Shown here in pieces: positions 1,753 through 33,812 of a DNA stretch of 64,000 bases; positions within the stretch are counted from its first letter, which is position 1; every line of letters starts with the position of its first letter. Under the pieces are notes generated by a model. It searched no databases. It worked only from the letters and a program-made list of their open reading frames with translations, and was not told where the DNA came from. The stretch comes from Nitrosopumilus sp. (lineage in GTDB: Archaea; Thermoproteota; Nitrososphaeria; Nitrososphaerales; Nitrosopumilaceae): the NCBI GenBank assembly GCA_965204345.1, contig OZ241981.1:160001-224000 (forward strand), given 5' to 3'. The translations under genes were made by a program, and so were the position numbers.

Positions 1753-3995
1753 TTGAATTTAAAAGTAACATTGCCGATGATAATTTTCTCACTAGTCCTC
1801 CTGTTTGCATATCCTTTAGATTCTGCATCCTAGACTGATGATGAGGATGCACAGCTTGCAGTGCCAGGCAATCTTATCCCGGCTGAGAATACATTAGGTT
1901 CTGTTGCAAGTGTGGATGTACCACCCAAGTTTGATGGCGGCTTTTATGGCAAAATCCAGGCCTCATATCTGAGGTACCCCAAGATGGCGACTATGGGGTA
2001 CATGACGGCACGCGATACTATGATGTCCTAATTATAGTGGCCAGAAGTGATGGTATAGATGCAGATGAGACAGCGCGCAAGAACAAGGATGCAATAGTAC
2101 AGAGACTTGATCTTCTTGGCGCACGTAACATAGCATCTGCAGAGTCACTCTCATTTGTGACTGCATCCATCCCAGTTGCAGACGTTCTGGGACTCTCACT
2201 TTATGACGAGGTATATGCCATGGGAGATGGTGAAATTCCCGTGACTCTGGAGATTGATACGGCTACGGGAACCGTACATGCAACTCCCGATGAGATTCAT
2301 ACTGCGACTGGCACAAATCTTGATGGCAGTGGAGTTGTTGTGGCAATCATTGACAGAGGCATCAACCACGATATCGCATTTATGGGCAGAATCGATGGGC
2401 GTGTAGAGTGCGATGATACGTGTGAGCCTGCAACTGCTGATACTGTGATCGGCGTTAATAGTACTAATCATCTTTCTCGTAATTTTACATCCCATGGTAC
2501 GCATATAGCCCAAATCCTTGCCGCATCAGGACTGCCTGCTCATAACGGCATTGCCCCTGGTGTAAAACTTTTGGATGCCTCAATTACCAGGCACAGTGTA
2601 GATGACGATAACAACCGTACCTTCATTAGTGCAAACAGAAATGACGTGGCACATGCCCTTGACTGGTCTCTCAAAAAAGGAGCCGACATGGCAGTCATGA
2701 GTTTTGGTTTTGGAATCTGCAGTGGAGATTATGGAAAGACAACCAACCTCATCACAAATGAGGCAGTTGACAAGGGAATGGTTCTAGTATCATCTGCAGG
2801 AAACAGGGGCATAATTTATGGAGCGCCAAACCAGCCAGTTTATCATCTATATTCTGATATGTTTTGTATATGCAATAATGGCATAATTTATGGAGCGCCA
2901 AACCAGCCAGTTTATCAGTCTATAACTCATCTCGGATGCGGACACAATGAAATTACCGTAGGCGGAATAAATGATCGTGGTCAAACAATAACAAGGGCAG
3001 ATTTTTCAGGCATGGGTCCCGTACCCGGAACAGTCCTGCTAAAGCCTGAGATAGTTGCACCTGCACATCATATTCAGACACTGGACAATGTTGCAGAAGC
3101 TGACACTTTTAGTCCTCGGTCCGGAACCAGCCTTGCTGCTCCCCAGGCAAGTGCAACTGCTGCCCTGTTGCTACAGGCAAAACCTGATCTGACCCCAGTT
3201 GAGATAAAGACAATACTTCTTCTTGGGGCTGACTGGCAGGGTCCAATCCCTTGCACGTCTGCACAGTATGAAAAAAACAATTCCACCGACAACTGTTCTC
3301 ATGCCAGACAGCCCTCGGATCCTTTTGAGGCAACCAATGTTGCATCCCTTGGAATACTAAACAATGTGGGCTTTGGCATACTAAACACAGCAGAGTCACT
3401 CAGGTATGCTCACAGTGAATCATCCCATGTAATGTCACACTATCTAAAGTCAGATACGCATACAAAGCAGTACGAGTTTGACGTACAGGACACATCAAAG
3501 CCAGTCAAAGTGATACTGTCATGGCTGGTTCATCCGCATGGCAGTATAACCGGACAGTTGACGACTAATGATACAGCAGTCCCTATTACCAATCTTGATT
3601 TTACAATATTGTCTCCGGATAATGCTACAATACAGGCAACATCATCCCACCAGACAAACGAGTTTGCAGTGTTTGCCCCCACTCTACTAGGAACATACAC
3701 CATAACAGTTAGCGGCTCTAACATTGATAACATAAACAAGCCTGTACAAAACTTTGCACTGGCAAGTACCAATCCTCTTACACTTGTAGGTGACAGTATA
3801 CTGGAGAGAAAAATAGAGAGATACAACTCTACACAAATCAGAATTACAGATATCACAGAAGACATTAAACAGTTAGAGCAAAAATTACAGGACAAAAAAG
3901 ACAATCTGGCAGAACTAGACTCGTTACTTTCCAAGCTTTATCTGCAAATTATAGAATTGGCCCCTGATGGTTACGAATTTCCATTCAAGGATTGA
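1753..3995 (+). pseudogene. S8 subtilisin-like serine protease; 5' end disrupted (TAG at 1831, frameshift ~1960), catalytic ORF 2037-3995 intact
   Basis: Triad motifs IIDRG, HGTH, GTSLAAP and oxyanion SAGN; signal peptide MNLKVTLPMIIFSLVLLFAYP from TTG 1753 lies in another frame and is stopped; C-terminal coiled coil. Confidence 0.8.
2808..2917. repeat. Repeat-spacer-repeat unit 1: 38-bp perfect direct repeat around 34-bp unique insert
   Basis: GGCATAATTTATGGAGCGCCAAACCAGCCAGTTTATCA at 2808-2845 and 2880-2917. Confidence 0.95.
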
Positions 3996-4621: not shown

Positions 4622-7600
4622 ATGCCCACACTATCTATGGCCGGAATTGCAGTGTCTGGATTTTTGGTTTTGGTTGCCGTGATGATGATAATGGCAGTGA
4701 TGATGCCAGCACATGCTGCAACCTCGGACTCGCCACTTGACCAGCATCATGCAGGCATACCAATAGATGGGATTCAGTGCAATGACGGCAAGCTTTTGAT
4801 GGTGAACCTTGCAGGCAAGCCAGTTTGCGTAACTGGTGATTCTGCCATGAAATTAGGAGACGGGGGCAGCAGCGGCAGCAGCATATATGCCACGACGGCA
4901 CACACACCAGAAACATCCCAAAAAGCCAATGAACCTTTAAGTGAAAAGATCACAAGCCAGACAGACACGCATGTATTTACTGACAAAGAAAAGCAGATTA
5001 TCGCTGATTACAAGAAATCTTCAATATTATCATCACCTGGAATTCTTATACACAGTTATTCCTTAGATCTCTCAGAATCACCCAAGGTGGGCCAAACTGC
5101 TATGATAAACTTTACCGGTATCTACACTGATAATACAAATTTTGAGCCATACATGGAACCATTCACGCTAAAAGTATTTGCCAATCCTGGTGACAAAGTT
5201 TTGTTTCATGATGATGCAGTAACAAATGCAGGCTCTGATGATCCAACCATCTTTGTGCCATTTGATAATAAAGTCGGATATGTAGTAGATGAGCCCGTGC
5301 CGGGTAGGGCTTATACCGTGATGGTTACTGTAGAAATTCTAGAGGAGGGATTTATTGAAATTGACGCATTGCGCTTTGATTCTTTAGAATCCCGTGGCGG
5401 TGTCTACCTTGCAATATCTGATGAATATTCTATATCAGAAAATGAGTATATGGATGAGGGACACACATTTTTGGATCACATCATTTTAGCTAGGGCATCT
5501 AGTTCTGAATCTTTTGCACCTCAAGAAGATAGCGGACTTGGCAATGAAGCGAGGTCTGAGGATGAGATAGTTGATGAGGTTTTGACGGATAAAAGAGTAG
5601 CTGAAATATATGCCAACCACCTGCGACTTTTGGGTGAGATAGTTGTCAATGATATTGGCAAAGTCAATGACGATTTAATTGGATGGCTTGCTGATAAATC
5701 CCTTCCATTAGATGATGTAAAAATTATTTTGAGACACTCTAATTTCACGCAGGCGCAAGTAGATGATGTAATGGAGAGATACGAGGCAGATTATACTGGT
5801 CCCCCGGATATGACGGATGGTGAAGCAACAGCAGCAGCAGCAGCAACAACAGTAGTAGCAGCAGCAGCAACAACAACAACAACAACAGCAGATGGCTCCC
5901 CCACAGATACCGCTGCTGCCCCAGCATTCCCCGTAGCTGCAACTCAGGAGGCGTCTGTTGGTGCAGCAGAAGACTCTTCTTCCAACACTTTTTCCATTGA
6001 AGGCACCGTATCTGCTCAACTTTATCTTTCCCGCACCACGCAACCCATCAACGGGATAGAAGTCTGTGCCTATGATCAACTTGGATCTACCCGTAGTGCA
6101 TTGACTGTATTGCTTACAACTGAGGGTGAAGATGCCTGCACATTTACATCCAACAGGGGAGAATATCGCATAGATTCTATCCAAAATGATGATCCTGATG
6201 ATGAATCAAATGTTGATCTAGTTATCAGAGTTAGTTCCAGGGGTTCAAATGATTTAGTCGTGCATGGTATATCTGGTGTTTATATAGAGTCATCTACCAG
6301 AGTTTTGAACTTTAGTGATGATACAAGAATGTTTGATTTTGTATTGAACGGCCGTGATGCAAGAGCATCTGGTATAATCAATGCAATCTCTGATGGCCGT
6401 GATTTTTTTAGTCATCACGGTATTCCTCCTGAGGAGCTTACTGTAAAGTGGGAGTATCGTAGACTTGCTAGTGTTTTTCCAGACTATACCCGTAACAATG
6501 CTGGATATATACTATCTGCGAACACCATATTTCTTAGCAGTTTTCCTTCTATCGCTGATAATGCTTTACACAAAGATCTCATATTGCATGAATTTGGCCA
6601 CTATATTATGGATATACAAGGTGTATTTCCATTCCTGCTGCGTTGTTACACTGATCTAAACAATGATGGTGATTTTGATGATATCGGTGAGACATCTCAT
6701 TATCTTCAACACCCAACTAATCGTACATGTGCATGGACAGAAGGTTGGGCTAATTTTGTTCCTAATTTAGTTACCAATTCGTCAAGTTTCGATAGTACCC
6801 CTTTTGGTATTATTAATTTGGAGCAAGACAGACAACAGTTAACTACTAATAACTTTATAGATTTTTTACCCGTAGATGACTTTGATCTTATTGGAGAACT
6901 CGTTGAAGGACAGGTAGCCGGAGCGCTATGGGATATCAAAGATCATAACGTTGATGAAATATTTGACAATTTAGAACAAAGCAGTAACGGTACTAACTTA
7001 GATAACCTGCAATTAGGCGATGATGAAATTATTGATGTATTTAAGAATGGAAGATATCATAATTTTAGAGATTTCTATGCTGCATGGGAAGATACAGAAT
7101 ATGATTCTTCATCTGACATTATGAGACTTCACCACATGAACTTTGCAATCCCAAACGATCTACCCCCGCCATCAAACATAGTGACTGACAGTTTTAACAC
7201 GCTTGACAATTGGAGTCAATCTGGCGCCTCTTGTTCGGTTCGCATCTCTGAGATTTGTTTTAACACGCTTGACCATTGGAGTCAATCTGACAATGACATG
7301 TGGGAGATAAATAGTGCCCACAAAACCATTCCAGATTCTGCCAGCGACAATACGGTGGCAACATCTAGCAACTGTGGTTCCGCTTGTTTTATTACACTTA
7401 ACCAGCCACTAGACATAAGAGAGCCTCTTGTAGTATCCTTTGATAGATTTGTTGATAGGAGAATTAACTCAGATGAAGGTCTGTATGTGCAGTACATGAC
7501 AGACTCTAGATGGGTGACACTGGCACAATATACTGGTATGAATGGGAATAATACCGACAACTGGCACTCTGAAGCCCTGACACTTAGCCTACGTGATCAA

Positions 7601-10600
7601 TCACAGACATTACTGCGATTTGTGGCAGACTCAAGCGGAGACAATGAATTCGTAGAGATTGATAATTTTAACATCTCGCCACTACCATTCACATTTACAG
7701 CCGGATTTACAACCGAATTCGTCATTACTCTGTATTTCCCTGTAGGACATGATACTAATTTTACAGCAAGTGATTTTAGCCTGTCTGAGGGAGCAATCAA
7801 CTCTATTAGTGTTAGTCGCAATGGCGAAATATTGCGCATGTTTACATCAGGCATTCCATATAGTACGCCAGTTACAGTAACCTATGTTGGTTCTGATTTT
7901 GGTTTTGATGGCAGTGATTCACAGTCACGCCCCACAGCCACCGTAACCAACTTCGGAAGGCCAGATAGATCAACCTTTGCTGATATCACTTTGCGTAACG
8001 GAGAGACCCGTACTGTAAGCGTGTCTGCACCCAATGCCGACCATGGACCAGTTTCATGGGACCTATTAGAAGCTCCAGACTTTGTCAGCATATCCCGTAC
8101 TGGTAATGGTACGGCAGACGTTATCATCTCTCCGCATAACGCCACCGTTGGCACTTATCTTGTTCGGGTATTCGCGGAGGTTGTCTCATTTTCTGGTCGG
8201 TCAATAGATATTCATGTAACTATTGACGACGGCGACGACAATACTGACCCGCCAGATACCACAAACCCTGTAATTACTGCTCCTGCTGATCTCACTGTAG
8301 AGGCTACCGACATTCGTACACCTGTGAATACTGGTACGGCATCAGCTGCAGACAATTCAGGTCCAAGCCCTGACATAACTCACGACGCACCACCAGACAA
8401 TTTCCCACTTGGCCCCACAACAGTTACATGGACTGCCACAGATGCTGCAGGAAACACAGCTACTGCAACACAGACGATAACCGTACAAGACACAACACCG
8501 CCTGCAATACAAAAGCCTGAAGATATTACAGAAGAGGCTACCTCATCACTAACTGCAATACAGCTGGCAGACCCCACAGTAACAGATATCTTTCCTTTTA
8601 CCATAAATAGCAACGCAACTGCATCGTTTCCTCTGGGTGATACCATAATCGCATGGACTGCCACTGACGAATCTAGGAATATCTCTACAACAACTAGTAC
8701 GGTAACCCTAGTGGATACCACTCCTCCCACAATAGTACAGCCTGCACCAATAACTGTGGATGCCACAGCAGAACTTACACCCGTATCAATAAGCGCGCCA
8801 GCTGCAACTGACACGGTGGACTCAGGCGTTGTTGTTGCTGTAACTGACAGTAATACTGCATCATTTGCCGTTGGAACACACAACGTGGTATGGACTGCCA
8901 CAGATGATTCAGGAAATACCGCAACTCTCACACAGACAGTTACTGTCAGGGATGCAGTCCCAACAGACCCTCCAGACAATCCTGATACCGTTACCCTAAC
9001 CGTCTCTGTAGCTACAACTGCAGGTGATCTCACCAACCTTGCTACGGTACCATTTACGGCAACATTCAACAAGGATGTTGTCTTTGACCTAGGTGACATT
9101 ACAGTAACTGGTACTGCAAATGACGGCAATCCCACAGCATCCAACCTTGGCAGAACAGGCAGTATCTACACCTTTGATGTGGCACGCGGCTCCACAGACG
9201 GAACCGTGACCGTATCCATAGATGCAAACGCGCTAACAGACTCTGCAGGCAACCCCAACACTGCATCTGCTCCAGTTACCGTCACCATAGACACCCTTGC
9301 CCCGGCAGTCTCTGTAACTTCGTCTGCAGGCAGCCGCACCGGACTTGATACGGTACCATTTACAGTAGAATTTAACGAAGACGTTGAGAACTTTGTCCTA
9401 GATGACATTACAGTGACAGGCGATGCCAACGGTGGAACCCTTGCAGCAACCGGCTTTGAGACAGTTGATGCCCGCACATACACCTTTAACGTTGCAGGCA
9501 TATCCTCAGACGGAACCGTAACTGTATCAGTTGCAGCAGATGTGGCAGCAGACCTTGCAGGCAACCCCAACACCGCATCTGCCCCAGTTACCGTCACCGT
9601 AGACACCACAGTCCCATCAGTATCACTGGACACAACTGCTGCTGATCCTACCAACTCTGAGGTCATACCATTTACTGCAATCTTTAGCGGCAATGTCACA
9701 GGATTTGAGCGGTCTGACATCGTTGTGGCAATTGACGGAACCCAGGTATCTAACTCTGAGATTAGTCTTGACCTTGGAGGGGAAAATTCCGTTGTTGTGT
9801 CAATTGGCAGTACACAGGCATCAGATAGCCTGATAACTGCCTTTAATGTAATTAATGGCACCCATTACAACTTTGCAGTCACACACGGGATCACCACAGA
9901 TGGCAAGCTAGCAGTAAGCATACCTGATGGTGTGGTGGCAGGGGGCAACACGGGTGCCGTACATACTATTACGGTGGACATGGTAAACCCATCCGTATCT
10001 ATCACGCCTGCTGATGGCACCACCATTACTGGTGATGACCCTGTAACGTTTACTGCAACATTTGATGAGGACGTTGAGAACTTTGAGCTGGATGACATTA
10101 CAATAGCGGGCACTGCCAATGGCGGCACCCCCACAGCATCCAACATTAATGGAGAAGGCAGTGTCTACACCTTTAATGTGGCACGCGGCTCCACAGACGG
10201 AACAGTAACCGTATCAATAGGTGCAGGTATGGCAGCCGACCTTGCAGGCAATCCCAATGAGGCATCTAATTCAGTTACCGTCACCATCAGCACCACAGGA
10301 GATGAGATTGAGGCAGATATCCCCTCTGGAGGTGATGGTGGCGTAGTGACATATGAGCCATCCTCAAATCTGATCACCCTCAACGTGGTATCTGACACAT
10401 TGCCTGACACAATTATTGCCACTGATGGCCAGCTGCTTGACTTTAATGCCACCCCCACGTTTGCTGATGATGCTGCAAGCGGAGTAAAGAGTGTGAGAAT
10501 TTCTGATTCTACAACTGAGGTTATCACTGATGTCTCTGATTCCCAAACTGTATCTGTCACTTATCCAGCAGGTATAGTTGTAAACGGTTCATCAAATGAT

Positions 10601-12295
10601 TGGAGTGGCACCATTGCCGTTCCAACCCTTGTTACTGCTGGCACTGCTGTTGATCCTCCAGCCTCAAATGACGAGATAGGACTGGCATTCTCAGTCGGTG
10701 ATGGCAACACCAGATTAACATTTGATCAGGCAGTCAGGTTACTCTTGCCTGGCCAGGCAGACCATGAGGGAGCCTTTTTCTCAGGAGAGGATACAGATGG
10801 CAACGTGATATCACGATCACTGGTTGTGTGTCCGTTTGTTCCTGTCAATCAGACTACTGCCAATGACAATATTGGAGCTGGCACTGCGTTGGAATCCTGT
10901 TTTGTTCGTGATGCTCCTGATATGATCATCTGGACCACGCACTTTAGCTCATTTGGCTCATTCTCTACGGTTCCTGTAGACCCTACACCATCCACACCTT
11001 CTAGTAGCCGCAGTAGTAGTGGTGGCGGTGGCGGTGGTGGCGGTGGCGGTGGCGGTGGTGGCGGTGGCGGTACCTCCTCCTCCTCCTTCAGCGGCTCATC
11101 TGCTGCAAACAATGCCTCCGAAGCTGTTTTGTACGACGTACAGTGGGATGTCTGTGAGGCAAACACAATCAACGTAATAGCTGGTCCTGTAACTGACAGT
11201 CTCTCTGTAAAGCTTAGAACCAACGCAGGCATAATCACGGCAGAACGCTCTGATGAGCAGCCCTATACTGGAAGAATCTCATTTGATGCAAGCCTCTCAC
11301 CAAACGAGTCATTTGTACGCGTACATGTGGAAAATATCGCAGCAAGGGGAATATCAACTGATTCAAAGTCATTTAACCTCACCGAGTGTTCTGGTTCTGT
11401 ATCTGTAAACACATACGAGTTATCATCATCGCCTGTTATTACCGGTGGCAGTGCAGATGTAACACCTGATCTGCCATCCAAAAAAGCGGATTTCTCAGAT
11501 GACATTATCATGCCAGGCCCCATCCAAGTACAAACGCCTGACATAATACGTGAGTTCCTCAACGACTTTGCAGATATTACCAATACTAACACGGGTATGA
11601 AACTCACTGAATTCCAGACACTGCAATCAAACCCTGACAGATATGCCAAGACCGTCCTGGGAATCAGCGGACAGACAGTTACCACAGTTGCATTGGCAGA
11701 CAGACCCATCTCAGAGGAGAGTAACAACAACAGTGCAAACCTCTTCTTGCAAATCTCATCCAATGGTGAGAAGGTCAACTCCATGAGGGGCGTTCTCTTG
11801 GGAGGTGACACCATTGAGATTGTGGCAGGAGACAAAAGTAAGATCATCGTTCCAACATCTGCAGAAATTGCAATTGCATCTGGGGATGCAAACGTGACAG
11901 TATCTCAAAAATCAAGCATGAAAATTAATGACGGATCAACGCAGGTTGATCTGCCAGACGTGCTCAGAGAATTCCTAAATACCAACATTGAATTTACAAA
12001 CGAGGATACCGGTGAGGCACTAACGCAATACGTGGTGTTGCAGTCAGTACCAGATGTGTTTGCAGAAAAAGAACTTGGAATCTCAGGACAAACCGTAACT
12101 ATCATCGCGTTCCCAGACAGGTATGGCAGAGCAGACAGCAATGATGACCTGAATGTCTTTGTACAGTTTACGCACACTGATGAGCAGGTCAACTCTTTGA
12201 GAGGCATCCAGCAGGGCGGCAACGCAATCAGCGTTAGCACCAACGGCGCTGAGCAGGGAACACTGACACAGACAGTAGAGATTCCGCTGGGCTAG
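4622..12295 (+). CDS. Giant secreted/surface protein: Zn-metallopeptidase domain + HYR repeats + Ig-like repeats + S-layer-like domain + duplicated C-terminal domain
   Basis: Signal peptide; LHEFGH plus downstream WTEGWA; three HYR units (FPLG.T.V.WTATD.AGN); four Ig-like units (PFT..F..DV..F...DITV); IWTTHFS; poly-Gly linker; two 'PD..REFLN...LGISGQTVT' repeats. Confidence 0.85.
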   Translation: MPTLSMAGIAVSGFLVLVAVMMIMAVMMPAHAATSDSPLDQHHAGIPIDGIQCNDGKLLMVNLAGKPVCVTGDSAMKLGDGGSSGSSIYATTAHTPETSQKANEPLSEKITSQTDTHVFTDKEKQIIADYKKSSILSSPGILIHSYSLDLSESPKVGQTAMINFTGIYTDNTNFEPYMEPFTLKVFANPGDKVLFHDDAVTNAGSDDPTIFVPFDNKVGYVVDEPVPGRAYTVMVTVEILEEGFIEIDALRFDSLESRGGVYLAISDEYSISENEYMDEGHTFLDHIILARASSSESFAPQEDSGLGNEARSEDEIVDEVLTDKRVAEIYANHLRLLGEIVVNDIGKVNDDLIGWLADKSLPLDDVKIILRHSNFTQAQVDDVMERYEADYTGPPDMTDGEATAAAAATTVVAAAATTTTTTADGSPTDTAAAPAFPVAATQEASVGAAEDSSSNTFSIEGTVSAQLYLSRTTQPINGIEVCAYDQLGSTRSALTVLLTTEGEDACTFTSNRGEYRIDSIQNDDPDDESNVDLVIRVSSRGSNDLVVHGISGVYIESSTRVLNFSDDTRMFDFVLNGRDARASGIINAISDGRDFFSHHGIPPEELTVKWEYRRLASVFPDYTRNNAGYILSANTIFLSSFPSIADNALHKDLILHEFGHYIMDIQGVFPFLLRCYTDLNNDGDFDDIGETSHYLQHPTNRTCAWTEGWANFVPNLVTNSSSFDSTPFGIINLEQDRQQLTTNNFIDFLPVDDFDLIGELVEGQVAGALWDIKDHNVDEIFDNLEQSSNGTNLDNLQLGDDEIIDVFKNGRYHNFRDFYAAWEDTEYDSSSDIMRLHHMNFAIPNDLPPPSNIVTDSFNTLDNWSQSGASCSVRISEICFNTLDHWSQSDNDMWEINSAHKTIPDSASDNTVATSSNCGSACFITLNQPLDIREPLVVSFDRFVDRRINSDEGLYVQYMTDSRWVTLAQYTGMNGNNTDNWHSEALTLSLRDQSQTLLRFVADSSGDNEFVEIDNFNISPLPFTFTAGFTTEFVITLYFPVGHDTNFTASDFSLSEGAINSISVSRNGEILRMFTSGIPYSTPVTVTYVGSDFGFDGSDSQSRPTATVTNFGRPDRSTFADITLRNGETRTVSVSAPNADHGPVSWDLLEAPDFVSISRTGNGTADVIISPHNATVGTYLVRVFAEVVSFSGRSIDIHVTIDDGDDNTDPPDTTNPVITAPADLTVEATDIRTPVNTGTASAADNSGPSPDITHDAPPDNFPLGPTTVTWTATDAAGNTATATQTITVQDTTPPAIQKPEDITEEATSSLTAIQLADPTVTDIFPFTINSNATASFPLGDTIIAWTATDESRNISTTTSTVTLVDTTPPTIVQPAPITVDATAELTPVSISAPAATDTVDSGVVVAVTDSNTASFAVGTHNVVWTATDDSGNTATLTQTVTVRDAVPTDPPDNPDTVTLTVSVATTAGDLTNLATVPFTATFNKDVVFDLGDITVTGTANDGNPTASNLGRTGSIYTFDVARGSTDGTVTVSIDANALTDSAGNPNTASAPVTVTIDTLAPAVSVTSSAGSRTGLDTVPFTVEFNEDVENFVLDDITVTGDANGGTLAATGFETVDARTYTFNVAGISSDGTVTVSVAADVAADLAGNPNTASAPVTVTVDTTVPSVSLDTTAADPTNSEVIPFTAIFSGNVTGFERSDIVVAIDGTQVSNSEISLDLGGENSVVVSIGSTQASDSLITAFNVINGTHYNFAVTHGITTDGKLAVSIPDGVVAGGNTGAVHTITVDMVNPSVSITPADGTTITGDDPVTFTATFDEDVENFELDDITIAGTANGGTPTASNINGEGSVYTFNVARGSTDGTVTVSIGAGMAADLAGNPNEASNSVTVTISTTGDEIEADIPSGGDGGVVTYEPSSNLITLNVVSDTLPDTIIATDGQLLDFNATPTFADDAASGVKSVRISDSTTEVITDVSDSQTVSVTYPAGIVVNGSSNDWSGTIAVPTLVTAGTAVDPPASNDEIGLAFSVGDGNTRLTFDQAVRLLLPGQADHEGAFFSGEDTDGNVISRSLVVCPFVPVNQTTANDNIGAGTALESCFVRDAPDMIIWTTHFSSFGSFSTVPVDPTPSTPSSSRSSSGGGGGGGGGGGGGGGGGTSSSSFSGSSAANNASEAVLYDVQWDVCEANTINVIAGPVTDSLSVKLRTNAGIITAERSDEQPYTGRISFDASLSPNESFVRVHVENIAARGISTDSKSFNLTECSGSVSVNTYELSSSPVITGGSADVTPDLPSKKADFSDDIIMPGPIQVQTPDIIREFLNDFADITNTNTGMKLTEFQTLQSNPDRYAKTVLGISGQTVTTVALADRPISEESNNNSANLFLQISSNGEKVNSMRGVLLGGDTIEIVAGDKSKIIVPTSAEIAIASGDANVTVSQKSSMKINDGSTQVDLPDVLREFLNTNIEFTNEDTGEALTQYVVLQSVPDVFAEKELGISGQTVTIIAFPDRYGRADSNDDLNVFVQFTHTDEQVNSLRGIQQGGNAISVSTNGAEQGTLTQTVEIPLG
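5824..5890 (+). repeat. In-frame GCA/ACA/GTA microsatellite (poly-Ala/Thr)
   Basis: Trinucleotide runs encoding ATAAAAATTVVAAAATTTTTTA. Confidence 0.9.
7191..7289. repeat. Repeat-spacer-repeat unit 2: 33-bp direct repeat (1 mismatch) around 33-bp unique insert
   Basis: GTTTTAACACGCTTGAC(A/C)ATTGGAGTCAATCTG at 7191-7223 and 7257-7289. Confidence 0.95.
11021..11088 (+). repeat. GGT/GGC poly-Gly and TCC poly-Ser linker
   Basis: Run of Gly codons followed by Ser codons. Confidence 0.9.
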
Positions 12296-13881: not shown

Positions 13882-14682
13882 TTACAGCACTGTCTGTCTC
13901 TTGAGACTTTTTGTAAATGATGCAATTTTTGCTTCCAGCTTTTTTTGAGGTGTCTTTTCAATTAACTCTAGATATGCACTTCCAACAATTACTGCATCTG
14001 CACCTGCGTTGACGTATCTTCTTACATCCTGCGGCGTTGAAACTCCAAACCCGATTCCTATTGGAATGTCTCCCTTGGTCTGTCTTTTGATTTGTCTTAT
14101 TGCATCTAGCGTGTATTTCTTGATTCTGGTTTTTACCCCGGTTGTACCAAACACTGCAACCAAGTACAAAAATCCGGATGTTGCTTTGGATATTTTTTGA
14201 ATTCTTGCCTTCTCTGTATTTGGAGATATTAGAAATATGGTATCTGTCTTGTCTTTTGCGGCGTTTAGATACTCTTCTGACTCTTCAATGGACATGTCAG
14301 GCAGGATAAATCCGTCAATGCCTGCATCTTTGGCATCTGTGACGAATTTTGCATATCCCTTGTGGTATAGGATGTTTGTATATGTCATTAGCACTAGTGG
14401 GATGTCTGTCTCTTTTCTAATCTTCTTGACAAGATTGAAAAACTTTGCAATTTCCGTTCCTTTTTCTAGTGATACCGTGCTTGCATTTTGAATAACCGGT
14501 CCGTCTGCTAGAGGATCTGAAAACGGAAAACCCAATTCAATAATGTCTGCTCCCCCCTTTATGAGCCCCCTCACTGCAGATAACGTGGATTTTTCATTGG
14601 GAAATCCTGCCATGATGTATGAGACTAGGGCCTTTTCATTTTTTGACTCCAATTCCGTAAATTTTTCCTTAATTCTTGACAT
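13882..14682 (-). CDS. trpA: Tryptophan synthase alpha chain
   Basis: [33 protein letters not shown]. Confidence 0.97.
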
Positions 14683-19749: not shown

Positions 19750-19947
19750 ATGATTGCCATGCCAGGGGTAAATCAAACAATCATGCAAGACATGCTGATT
19801 CTAAAAAAGCAAACAGCATCCACTACAGTAAGCAAGGTTGAATGCTATGTTTGTGGCAAGGGATTGCAGGACGGTCATTCCATTACTGCAAGAACGCTGC
19901 CAAATGGAATAGCCTTGTTCTGTGATGTCCACTATTATCAACAATAA
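19750..19947 (+). CDS. Small Zn-binding protein (CxxC...CxxH); C-terminus altered by insertion
   Basis: CYVC ... FCDVH. Confidence 0.7.
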   Translation: MIAMPGVNQTIMQDMLILKKQTASTTVSKVECYVCGKGLQDGHSITARTLPNGIALFCDVHYYQQ

Positions 19948-20007
19948 ATGCAAGGATACAGAGCTAATGGCCAAATGGAATAGCCTTGTTCTGTGATGTC
20001 CACTATT
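19899..20007. repeat. Repeat-spacer-repeat unit 3: 38-bp perfect direct repeat around 33-bp unique insert
   Basis: GCCAAATGGAATAGCCTTGTTCTGTGATGTCCACTATT at 19899-19936 and 19970-20007. Confidence 0.95.
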
Positions 20008-22648
20008 TGCTGCAATAGCTAAAAACATCAAAGAATTCCTTTGCACCATTTTTAGTCAATTCCTTATTTTTTGTTTGGCAATAGTTTGTAGTAAATGTGC
20101 ACTTTGGACAACCTCCCCAAACTTTTTGGTCTGCCTGTGTTTTATCTGCTGGACAGTCACAATCCCTTAACAAAGAAAGCCCTGCGGCCAATATTTTTTC
20201 AAATTCATCATAGATTATTTTACTGCACCCATTAAATCCGTCTGATGAGTTATCATAAAGGTAAATCACTCCATTTTCATAGTATGCATCAATATCACTT
20301 GATTCTGATTTTGTTAAAATTTTGCTTGCGTTCACTAGCATGTGTGTGATGGTATGCATCCTGGGATCACCGGCTATGGGATTTTTGGAGTCTGCTGCTG
20401 CCTTTGATATGAATTCTGCTGGTATCGTTACACTGGTTGCCGAGTGTCTTGATTTCCAATGAAAATTCCTCCATCCCGATATGCTGCTGCCATTATGCCT
20501 GGTAAATTTATCTGCTGATTCATTATAGTTTCCCTTCATGTATCCTGTAATTGTTCTATCCAGTGAAATTATTCCATACCGCAAAGATATTTTTTTATTC
20601 TTTACATTAATCTCCCTGTGCCTTGTTTTGCCTTCTGATGTCTGAATAACTGCCGTTCTGAGAATTGGAAATGTCTTCTTTCCCCTCTCACTTGATCTTA
20701 TCAGATATGCCCTTGCCCCATTTTGTGATTTTATTAACGAGCTTACTTCATAATTCTGCTTGTTAAAATGATACATTGCCTTTTGATGTAACTGATAGTA
20801 CCCTGCAGGTACTGCCCTGGTTCCAATTTTCATTGAATTATGGTATATGGAAATCTCGCCTGATGCCCCTCGCAAATTAACACTGTTTGCAAAATCAAAA
20901 AATTGGGATTTGTCTGATGTTGCCGCTGCCTCATCTTCAATTTCGACGGATTCTGCATGCCTCTCTGCGATTATCGGATTCCTCTTGTTGATTGGAACGA
21001 TGTGATCCTGTTTTAGATACTCATCAATATGGCGTGCAAAATAATGACAAGCTGCATCTTCTGGATCAAAGACGCAGATGGCATATGATTCCTGTCCCAT
21101 GCGTCCTGCCCTTCCGATTCTTTGAACAAACGAGTCAAATTCGTTTTTGAATGCAGAAATTACTACATCCACATGCCCTATGTCAATTCCCAACTCTAGC
21201 GTCGGCGTACATGACAAAACATCCAAGTCTCCTGCCTTCATTTGGGACTCGTACATTTTTCTGTCCCTTTGATCCAGCCCTCCTCTGTGAATCTGAATTC
21301 GTATCCCTTTGTTTGCTGTTTCCATATTTGATGCCAGAAATTCTGCGTCATTGTGTGAATTGCTAAAAACCAGCTGTGTTGAATTATTCCTGTGGCAGAT
21401 GGATGATAGCATTTCCATGGTTGTTCTTTGCCTGAACTTCCTAGGCATGATAAAAAACATGTGCATGTTTTGTTTTCGCCGAAACTTACTTTTGATATAC
21501 CTAAACGAGTCCTCAGGCAGATCAAACATGCTGGAAAAAAATTCCTTTGAATTATCCAGCGTTGCAGACGAGCCTACAAACTGCACCTTGCCCATGAATC
21601 TTTTCATTCTTTTTAGAACATGATATACGTTTGATCCGTGAAAACTCGTATACGAATGTGCTTCATCCATGACAATTATTTTTGCATTTTTGAATAACTC
21701 GTTCCATTTTTTATCCTGCAGTATTAAATGATAATTAATAAAATCAAAATTCGTTGCAATGATTAGAGCCTTTTTGCCAGACTCCAAAATCACCATGTCT
21801 TTGTATTCTGTACTCTGGCCTCCGTGAATTGAATATGCTGAAACCCTGTCTCCAAGATCACATTTTTGAATCAGGTCGGATATTTTTGAGATCTGATCAT
21901 CAATTAACGCATTTGATGGATATACCAGCAATGTGAATACTCCTGATGCTGAATTTTCTGTGATTTTTTGCAGTATTGGGATTGCAAATGCTTCTGTTTT
22001 TCCAGATCCTGTGGGCGCTGAAATTATTGTATCCCCTCCACTTAGAATTGCTTTGATGGATTCCTCCTGAAATGGGAGTACCCCTGCAAAGCCATATTTT
22101 TCTAGACCCTTTATGATATTCTCAGATAAGATGTCTCTGAGATTTGCAATTGGAATTTTTTCAGACTCTGAAGCAACTAATCGCTCATAATGGATTAATG
22201 CCAGGGATTCCTCTTTGTGGCCTTGAATTATCTCTCTAATTATGTAGTTATTATCAACTAGTGATTTTGGAATCTTGCTAATATCAAAAAGAATATCCTG
22301 AGGAATTAAAATTTTGGGTGCCGGATCTTTAGTTTTTGTTTTCACATGTTTTTTAATTTCATCTGGAAAGTATTCTGCTGATTCGCCGGAGACTGTGCAT
22401 TGATGGGGCTCATCTGTTCTTGAATCAATGGGGATAAATTTTCCACTATCTGATTTGAACCTCTCATCCCAGTAAATCTCTGCCCCGCATCCTTTGGAAC
22501 ACTGTTTTGTTCTTCCTGAATAGTTTACTCCATATGTTGGAGCTTTTACCATGATTTTTTCAGGATTGCACTTGGGACATATTCTCGGAGATCCTACATC
22601 CTCATGGCTTTGAACCAGTCTTGTATCACAGTCAAAACAAAATTTCAT
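20003..22648 (-). CDS. DEAH-box SF2 helicase with C-terminal DUF1998 Zn domain (Hrq1/MrfA-like) and N-terminal Zn ribbons
   Basis: APTGSGKT, DEAH, SAT, TLELGIDIG, QRIGRAGR, C-terminal CDC...GCPKC. Confidence 0.92.
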   Translation of the reverse strand: MKFCFDCDTRLVQSHEDVGSPRICPKCNPEKIMVKAPTYGVNYSGRTKQCSKGCGAEIYWDERFKSDSGKFIPIDSRTDEPHQCTVSGESAEYFPDEIKKHVKTKTKDPAPKILIPQDILFDISKIPKSLVDNNYIIREIIQGHKEESLALIHYERLVASESEKIPIANLRDILSENIIKGLEKYGFAGVLPFQEESIKAILSGGDTIISAPTGSGKTEAFAIPILQKITENSASGVFTLLVYPSNALIDDQISKISDLIQKCDLGDRVSAYSIHGGQSTEYKDMVILESGKKALIIATNFDFINYHLILQDKKWNELFKNAKIIVMDEAHSYTSFHGSNVYHVLKRMKRFMGKVQFVGSSATLDNSKEFFSSMFDLPEDSFRYIKSKFRRKQNMHMFFIMPRKFRQRTTMEMLSSICHRNNSTQLVFSNSHNDAEFLASNMETANKGIRIQIHRGGLDQRDRKMYESQMKAGDLDVLSCTPTLELGIDIGHVDVVISAFKNEFDSFVQRIGRAGRMGQESYAICVFDPEDAACHYFARHIDEYLKQDHIVPINKRNPIIAERHAESVEIEDEAAATSDKSQFFDFANSVNLRGASGEISIYHNSMKIGTRAVPAGYYQLHQKAMYHFNKQNYEVSSLIKSQNGARAYLIRSSERGKKTFPILRTAVIQTSEGKTRHREINVKNKKISLRYGIISLDRTITGYMKGNYNESADKFTRHNGSSISGWRNFHWKSRHSATSVTIPAEFISKAAADSKNPIAGDPRMHTITHMLVNASKILTKSESSDIDAYYENGVIYLYDNSSDGFNGCSKIIYDEFEKILAAGLSLLRDCDCPADKTQADQKVWGGCPKCTFTTNYCQTKNKELTKNGAKEFFDVFSYCSK

Positions 22649-33512: not shown

Positions 33513-33773
33513 ATGAAAAAAATAATTAAAATCACGATAATCATTTTGAGTGTTATAGCATTTTTATTCTGTCTTCTTTTAATTGCCAATTATATTTTAT
33601 ACGAAACATGGGGCAGTAATGAGAATTTCTATATCCCACAAAACGGACAAAAAGTGAAATGTGATATTAATCTATTACAAAAACCTAGCAATTGCAGGAC
33701 TATAATTGATAATGAATTGACTGTGATACCAATTGAAGAATGGCCCAATCATGATATAAACCCCGAAAAATGA
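33513..33773 (+). CDS. Small membrane protein
   Basis: N-terminal TM helix, two Cys. Confidence 0.7.
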   Translation: MKKIIKITIIILSVIAFLFCLLLIANYILYETWGSNENFYIPQNGQKVKCDINLLQKPSNCRTIIDNELTVIPIEEWPNHDINPEK

Positions 33774-33812
33774 AACCATAATTAATAATGAATTGACTGT
33801 GATACCAATTGA
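33699..33812. repeat. Repeat-spacer-repeat unit 4: 38-bp direct repeat (2 mismatches; 35-bp core with 1) around 38-bp insert
   Basis: AC(T/C)ATAATT(G/A)ATAATGAATTGACTGTGATACCAATTGA at 33699-33736 and 33775-33812. Confidence 0.9.

Follow-up and report, generated by a model that had tools for sequence, protein, structure and literature searches.

A probable natural case of non-canonical CRISPR spacer integration in a giant-protein gene of Nitrosopumilus

Non-canonical spacer integration, which creates so-called "neo-CRISPR" loci away from the true CRISPR arrays, has been described in Escherichia coli over-producing the type I-E Cas1-Cas2, and texts citing that work speak of only circumstantial evidence for it in nature, from two other species (Nivala, Shipman and Church 2018; 10.1101/148544, PMC7054753). 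In vitro, the Cas1-Cas2 of Pyrococcus furiosus performs full-site off-target integration with attack points one repeat length apart, and the consulted sections of that study describe sites whose likeness to the repeat lies mainly at the borders, the attack falling preferentially on a G (PMC6698737). Ectopic spacer acquisition inside arrays is described, in the part of the source consulted, for Streptococcus thermophilus (PMC7999890). In this literature off-target integration is known mainly from over-producing E. coli and from test-tube reactions. Here we describe a 64-kb stretch of the genome of a Nitrosopumilus species, an ammonia-oxidising archaeon associated with sponges (the window: positions 160001-224000 of contig C1, the 2.04-Mb main contig of a 2.12-Mb assembly), in which the gene of a giant protein carries a 33-nucleotide (nt) direct repeat flanking a 33-nt insert, henceforth unit 2. 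We class unit 2 as a natural example of non-canonical spacer integration, and consider it quite likely that it arose through off-target action of Cas1-Cas2.

Unit 2 as a gain in a giant-protein gene

The two direct copies of unit 2, recovered by a repeat search, have starts offset by 66 nt and are identical at 32 of 33 positions, the sole difference being an A at 7208 versus a C at 7274; the insert fills the interval between them (Table 1). The net gain amounts to 66 bp and is in frame and stop-free within an open reading frame (ORF) of 2557 amino acids, which stays open across the unit. Its translation at this place runs ...FNTLDNWSQSGASCSVRISEICFNTLDHWSQSDNDMWEI..., and the local peptide can be laid out as FNTLDNWSQSG-ASCSVRISEIC-FNTLDHWSQSD-NDMWEI. 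An earlier note on this stretch, made from the sequence alone, had described a 33-nt repeat with a single mismatch around a 33-nt insert, and its description is accurate: the insert reads exactly as quoted there, and translation yields the peptide that it gave, GASCSVRISEIC, in frame in this ORF. Identity of the copies by chance is excluded, because 33-nt windows 66 nt apart along this gene share 9.1 +/- 2.9 bases versus the 32 observed, and none of the windows sampled attained 32.

Several familiar kinds of element were considered for this structure and rejected. The repeat stops at 33 nt and 7224-7256 is unrelated to 7290-7322; with the sequence downstream of the second copy unlike the insert, unit 2 is therefore no tandem duplication of 66-nt period, and slippage is ruled out. 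As for a functional CRISPR array, there are two copies only, they are coding sequence inside the open ORF, taken in full length they do not resemble the host repeat, and no Cas6 was found in the genome. A transposable element, such as a miniature inverted-repeat transposable element with target-site duplication, does not agree with an insert that is unique in the genome, nor with the wider class of units described below, whose inserts have no common sequence and form no hairpins. The repeat search returned no inverted repeat of 12 nt or more at unit 2. The inverted pair TTGAC/GTCAA, which the earlier note had likened to that of CRISPR repeats, is indeed present in the 33-mer, but a pair of 5 nt carries little meaning, and it has no counterpart in the host repeat. 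Searches for the insert, as the earlier note had proposed, gave no second copy in the source genome, no exact match in viral or metagenome contigs, no match in phage records (blastn), and, with up to 3 mismatches allowed, nothing in 400 further genomes from the family; without other copies or matches, the insert is therefore no repeated element.

Unit 2 is a gain. A DNA search with 1.1 kb around it detected no orthologue outside the source genome among 40 relatives, and for this reason the empty state was taken from paralogues, of which the source genome has four. The closest of these, p1708 (C1 ~1708-1709 kb; 87-88% identical), has a single copy of the 33-mer, common to two aligned pieces, and its protein reads FNTLDNWSQSG-NGVWEI at the site, without the 22 residues. 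A homologue search with residues 760-1060, limited to proteins of 1406-4475 amino acids, scored nothing. Among 1.84 billion representative proteins, 246 were hit, and in these the HMMER matches to the downstream domain mostly start at query positions 121-126, i.e. at the second unit 2 copy. Counted in the best 150 of these 246, the motif F[DE]..L..W-x(n)-W at the start of the domain has 77 instances in 66 proteins, with n = 5-11 in 75 of them and n = 7 in 49; the spacing from the first to the last tryptophan in the unit 2 protein is 29 residues, which equals 7 + 22. Furthermore, both unit 2 copies carry the derived bases C17 and T26 at positions where the closest and the distant paralogues have T and C. 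From these shared derived bases it follows that the duplication arose in this gene after its split from its sister. The empty state that the earlier note had asked for is thus found both in the closest paralogue and in distant homologues, which lack the 22 residues.

The three distant paralogues (C1:1736 kb, 1771 kb and 1842 kb; 71-73% identical) have about 60-66 extra nt in the same place. Their 33-mer is identical at 19 of 33 positions to the sequence 66 nt downstream, and in one of them at 18 of 33 at an offset of 60, while 9.4 +/- 2.7 is expected under the null and values as high as those observed occur in no more than 0.7% of windows; the peptide is FDTFGTWFLGA-YLETFNPEFPS-FRSFNVWLLAG-HDWEI. 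We read this as a probable older and decayed 33+33-nt unit at the paralogous site. It would represent a second independent hit at the domain start, and as such it would be evidence for a preferred site. The same extra nucleotides and self-similarity speak for an alternative in which the 22 residues are ancestral, with p1708 having lost the loop by deletion between repeats and the unit 2 copies having been homogenised by gene conversion. This history strikes us as most unlikely: the short form of the motif is near-universal in the distant homologues, the unit 2 insert and the paralogue insert agree at 13 of 30 positions (codon-aligned count) between flanks that are 71-73% identical, and the two derived bases common to both copies are missing from p1708 as well as from the distant paralogues. 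It also needs three events, one of them unusual, whereas for a gain two events suffice, of a sort that this genome shows at least 24 times. A likeness of the start of the insert to the distant paralogues, obtained with MAFFT, was discarded, as it needs a 2-3-nt shift and vanishes in the positional alignment.

Independent metagenome data also contain the filled site. Logan contigs from four runs belonging to four studies (dated 2010-2024) cover the whole of unit 2 gap-free; those in X10 (record 10), X3 (record 20) and X7 (record 26) show 0, 6 and 2 differences, respectively, and that in X1 (record 3) has 48 differences in 975 nt, representing a strain ~4.9% diverged. An A>C change within the insert, at 7251, is present in two runs, and the runs holding DNA of the window are mostly sponge metagenomes. 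The presence of unit 2 in the diverged strain implies that the insertion is older than the divergence of these strains, in agreement with the one mismatch between its copies. No contig in these runs joins 7223 to 7290, as an empty allele would, although contigs cannot exclude rare alleles. An assembly or sequencing artefact, the "assembly echo" against which the earlier note had argued, can be given practically no credence in view of these gap-free contigs, which include the diverged strain, and of the one base at which the copies differ. In X3 and X7 some contigs leave the sequence of the window at ~7200-7212 and continue differently, one continuation being that of a distant paralogue and the other that of a further, insert-free variant of the domain start, so that the gene family differs from strain to strain.

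The class of units and the CRISPR locus of the host

Unit 2 belongs to a class of similar structures in the genome. On the 2.04-Mb contig there are 34 isolated direct repeats of 30-42 nt with spacings of 45-200 nt; in 28 of them the spacing is 65-79 nt, and in 21 of those 28 it is 70-74 nt. With copies inside larger duplicated segments collapsed, at least 24 independent units are left on the main contig, over which they are scattered, and one more lies inside the CRISPR array. The duplications of the 24 units measure 31-42 nt (mostly 35-38) and their inserts 30-41 nt, with sums of 66-76 nt and a mode of 72, and the copies are identical in 20. All inserts of the 25 units are different and mutually unrelated, their mean G+C content being 40% versus 38.7% for the contig; the idea that they might be hairpins was rejected (mean z +0.12). 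Four units are in frame and stop-free within long ORFs. Six inserts, one of them in the array, match other sites of the chromosome over their full length with coinciding boundaries (identities of 34/36, 34/35, 30/32, 33/34, 32/32 and 30/30), and for the remaining 19 of 25 the genome offers no template. One of the six matches falls in the window, within trpA, a host biosynthetic gene that, judging from this match, likely served as a spacer source. Three of the six self sources fall within C1:1209-1289 kb.

The genome has a single CRISPR array (C1:1886281-1886671), with 6 repeats at a spacing of 68-72 nt. Its repeat is GTYTCAATCTTTATWATTTTAGAATTCTATTCAG, reading GTTTCAAT...TATTCAG on the + strand; it is 34-36 nt long, and the array spacing implies spacers of 32-38 nt. 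Next to the array are cas4, cas2 and cas1, the last being the only cas1 in the genome. The geometry of the class matches that of the array, with spacings of mostly 70-74 nt in the units versus 68-72 nt in the array and 70-75 nt in the array of the relative G157. Unit 2 itself fits this pattern: its duplication of 33 nt (35 with 2 mismatches) is close to the length of the host repeat, its insert lies within the implied length of host spacers and is unrelated to the other inserts, and the host encodes Cas1 and Cas2 beside its array.

Two of the units lie in the CRISPR locus itself. The cas1 gene matches its family profile over positions 3-297, yet it contains two TAA stops, both of which are in the 34-nt insert of a unit at C1:1888134-1888243 (38+34+38 nt, copies identical); in the relatives G157 and G065 the cas1 orthologue has an open frame from which precisely these 72 nt are absent. 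At the cas4-side end of the array, the unit at C1:1886549-1886660 is out of register, in that its 40-nt duplication combines 13 nt of the previous spacer with 27 nt of the repeat; C1:1209418-1209449, 677 kb off, matches its 32-nt insert without a difference. We take this unit to be the newest.

Searches of the genome for DevR/Cas7, RAMPs, Cas6 and Cas5d uncovered no effector genes, the Cas7b and Cas3b proteins of G157 as queries found no match, and a cas3_core search gave only sub-threshold helicase matches. The best of these, the ORF at 20003-22648 of the window, was rejected as a cas gene, as it encodes a DEAD/MZB helicase beside the trp operon. By comparison, G157 has a complete cas8b-cas7b-cas5b-cas3b-cas6b-cas1-cas2-cas4 set and at least 67 repeats, 36 nt long, in its array. 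Hence, by its gene content, the source genome carries a type I-B system in decay, in which the adaptation genes outlasted interference, and the loss of interference would explain why self-derived inserts are tolerated. A 563-residue tyrosine-recombinase-like ORF (C1:1882556-1884247) lies ~2 kb from the array, and the remnant CRISPR locus may therefore sit on an integrated element.

Table 1. Unit 2, its host gene and related features in the 64-kb window (positions counted from the first letter of the window)
Feature	Position	Strand	Description
Unit 2, left target copy	7191..7223	+	33 nt; 35 nt counting the next GC, then 2 mismatches; derived C17 and T26
Unit 2, spacer-length insert	7224..7256	+	33 nt, 52% GC; with the preceding G encodes GASCSVRISEIC
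Unit 2, right target copy	7257..7289	+	Now the start of the downstream jelly-roll-like domain (FNTLDHW-x7-WEI)
Host gene of unit 2	4622..12295	+	2557-residue secreted or surface protein; HEFGH motif, three HYR and two Big_12 domains
Class unit	2808..2917	+	38+34+38 nt, copies identical; in frame in subtilase (Peptidase_S8) gene 2037-3995
Class unit	19899..20007	.	38+33+38 nt, copies identical; 3' end of DEAD/MZB helicase gene 20003-22648 (-)
Class unit	33699..33812	.	38+38+38 nt, 2 mismatches; intergenic
Likely self-protospacer in trpA	14508..14541	+	33/34 nt match to the insert of the unit at C1:1385280

Some loci of the class have a more involved structure. C1:250509-250700 and C1:253451-253566 are two copies of a duplicated segment. 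A decayed unit of repeat, insert and repeat (42 nt, with 5 mismatches) is present in one and again in the other, where a second, fresher insertion overlaps it. The locus at C1:250509 has three repeats and its sister at 253451 two, which looks like a growing neo-array. At C1:486267-486486 two units are adjacent (36+35+36 and 38+34+38 nt); the second is inside a tRNA gene, duplicates its 3' part and leaves an intact copy. No tRNA genes were found in the 64-kb window. Identical units recur at C1:1406775, 1410373 and 1413971, within larger direct repeats with a period of 3598 nt, as well as at C1:1419699/1424895, 1765720/1848731 and 1400070/2017394, in larger direct repeats or inverted duplicated segments. 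Some duplications of segments must therefore postdate the insertions that they contain.

Units in related genomes and resemblance of targets to the repeat

The same census script was run on partial sequence of five related genomes, the source genome included, as a comparison of counts rather than a statistical test. In the three genomes with both cas1 and cas2, isolated repeats with the geometry of the class number 23 of 28 in the source genome (1.6 Mb), 3 of 7 in G157 (0.8 Mb), which has one more unit beside its array, and 8 of 10 in G154 (0.8 Mb). In the two without cas2, they number 1 of 6 in G041 (0.8 Mb; Cas1-family ORFs), this one being a coding tandem repeat, and 0 of 4 in G012 (0.4 Mb; a Cas1-family ORF). 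Thus, units are present in 3/3 genomes with cas1 and cas2, and there is no genuine unit in 2/2 genomes without cas2; the contrast runs in the direction predicted for spacer integration. DNA similarity had pointed to G041 and G012 as controls free of cas1, but they were rejected in this capacity when a family search found Cas1-family ORFs in them (128-140 bits), which are not close in DNA to the CRISPR cas1. The contrast between the comparison genomes that survives is therefore that of cas2 present versus absent. We assume that the Cas1-family ORFs of these two genomes may be casposases.

Such ORFs bring up the alternative that some other integrase or mobile element makes target duplications of 31-42 bp in these genomes. 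Casposons measure several kilobases, with inverted repeats at their termini and short target duplications; those made by the casposase are much shorter than here, ~14-15 bp. What the units share with casposase activity is a Cas1-family integrase making target-site duplications and the occurrence of Cas1-family ORFs without cas2 in relatives; the inserts here, unlike casposons, are 30-41 nt of unrelated sequence. In favour of another enzyme, the case for Cas1-Cas2 is indirect, the tyrosine recombinase gene lies near the array, and relatives have the Cas1-family ORFs just mentioned. However, the inserts have no common sequence, no terminal repeats and no hairpin, so that they are not copies of one element; moreover, the relatives with a Cas1-family ORF but no cas2 show no genuine unit. 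We therefore hold a different integrase to be very improbable.

The targets resemble the host repeat at their ends. For scoring, targets were compared with the eight bases at either end of the host repeat, and of the two orientations the better one was kept. The 33-mer of unit 2 starts GTTTTAAC and ends CTG, with GTTTTAA versus GTTTCAA and CTG versus CAG in the host repeat; agreement extends to 10 of the 16 terminal positions, and 0.58% of random genome windows score at least as high. On the other strand GTTTTAAC becomes GTTAAAAC, which is near the ATTGAAAC that ends the host-type repeat. For the 24 duplicated targets the mean terminal score is 7.0 versus 5.34 +/- 1.55 for random windows, a mean of 7.0 not being attained in any of 20,000 resamplings. 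Regardless of orientation, a 5'-GT is found at one end in 9 of the 24 units against a background of 9.4% (P 2e-4), a 3'-AG also in 9 of 24 against 11% (P 7e-4), and G...AG on the same strand in 5 of 24 against 2.2%. One unit of G157 ends GGATTGAAAC, like the repeat of G157 itself. These biases suggest that the choice of site may be guided by terminal motifs of the repeat. The resemblance to a CRISPR repeat from which the earlier note had started is thus borne out for the terminal positions of unit 2 and, as GT and AG ends, for the class, but not over the whole length of the target; its proposal of a repeat-mimicking off-target site draws support from the ends only, with the action of the enzyme inferred.

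Proposed origin and comparison with known systems

In the origin that we favour, off-target spacer integration, the type I-B adaptation enzymes Cas1-Cas2, together with Cas4, would have loaded a prespacer of ~33 bp and, instead of the leader-proximal repeat, attacked opposite strands of the giant-protein gene in two staggered strand transfers 33 bp apart, at a site whose ends mimic those of the repeat. Gap repair would then have copied the 33 bp between the cuts, giving the order target-insert-target. As the right copy would rebuild the first strand of the downstream domain, the protein may have tolerated the 22-residue extension of the linker, and the allele could become fixed.

A number of observations weigh against this origin. 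The similarity of the targets to the host repeat over the whole length is at background (13.58 versus 13.24, P 0.22), in a test that used a repeat string one base out of register. At 66 nt, unit 2 has the lowest sum of duplication and insert in its class, in which all other units have 69-76 nt. No source (protospacer) for the unit 2 insert was found in the searches above, so that capture cannot be shown, and inspection of the flanks of the six self-derived sources gave no consistent protospacer-adjacent motif. The decayed unit in the distant paralogues needs a second independent hit or a more complicated history. The two unit-free genomes still hold Cas1-family ORFs, and the comparison comprises five genomes that are all kin. 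With cas1 now broken, activity cannot be current in this strain. Finally, a plain integrase model predicts neither of two features of the class: in two of the six units with known source (C1:1947301 and C1:1886549) the flank of the source and the target share 9 nt (4+5) and 5 nt (4+1), respectively, beyond the minimal insert, and the lengths of duplication and insert are negatively correlated (r -0.56, P 0.004), so that the standard deviation of their sum is 2.08 versus 3.11 expected if the lengths were independent.

The last two features are those that replication template switching would account for, akin to microhomology-mediated break-induced replication or fork stalling and template switching, in which a jump at a microhomology, copying of ~35 nt, return upstream and re-copying of the target would create such a unit with no CRISPR enzyme. 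It fares badly with the rest of the data. Four of the six source-known units have junction identities of 0-1 nt, and 19 of the 25 inserts lack the genomic template that such a jump would copy. Template switching has no ruler, yet 28 of the 34 isolated repeats have the period of a host-type array. The units track cas1 and cas2 across the five genomes sampled, and the mis-registered unit in the array speaks against it as well. By our estimate chance ambiguity of the boundaries gives about half of the covariance of lengths; the rest is unexplained and keeps template switching alive as an improbable alternative to spacer integration.

Beyond unit 2, and with only slightly more confidence than doubt, we propose that in this genus the type I-B module has slowly mutated the genome at large by insertion at preferred sites, being responsible for at least 24 insertions of ~72 nt in one symbiont chromosome, for in-frame additions of 22-25 residues, for two hits on one domain-start site in paralogues, and for the destruction of its own cas1 after the loss of interference. 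If this is true, CRISPR adaptation would be a source of new coding sequence, and the junction identity of 4-9 nt in two units would suggest that the ends of the prespacer help choose off-target sites. In the full-text literature searched, no natural genome with a comparable load is reported, nor any in-frame coding insertion of this origin or any cas1 broken in this way. The source genome is hence a natural record of at least 24 events, ranging from identical to decayed copies, with their targets and some of their sources, and it includes an integrase gene hit by the same process. The record indicates that such insertions can become fixed in working genes as in-frame additions, that target choice goes with the terminal bases of the repeat, and that self-derived insertions accumulate in a lineage which is without interference but has kept adaptation. 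The empty and the filled paralogous site, in turn, offer natural substrates for studying the specificity of a type I-B integrase.

Among the systems described, as far as the parts of these sources consulted go, the events in S. thermophilus (PMC7999890) share with unit 2 an integration away from the leader-proximal repeat, but they use true repeats within the array, while unit 2 is coding DNA far from the array; in the array of the source genome, too, one event is out of register, with parts of a spacer and of a repeat duplicated. The off-target products of P. furiosus are paralleled by the enrichment of 5'-GT and 3'-AG at the ends of the duplications in the source genome; the P. furiosus reactions, however, took place on a plasmid in a test tube with a 30-bp ruler, whereas the present events are chromosomal and natural, span 31-42 bp and have undetectable internal mimicry of the repeat (PMC6698737). 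The closest likeness in form is to the neo-CRISPR loci, as described in texts citing that work: in both cases an insert of spacer length lies between repeat-length duplications of non-CRISPR DNA in a host with Cas1-Cas2, and a site once hit can be hit again, as at C1:250509 with its three repeats against two. In contrast to the E. coli experiments, the insertions here are natural and fixed, number at least 24 in one archaeal genome and have type I-B geometry (~36 + 35 nt), with several in frame in intact genes and one in cas1.

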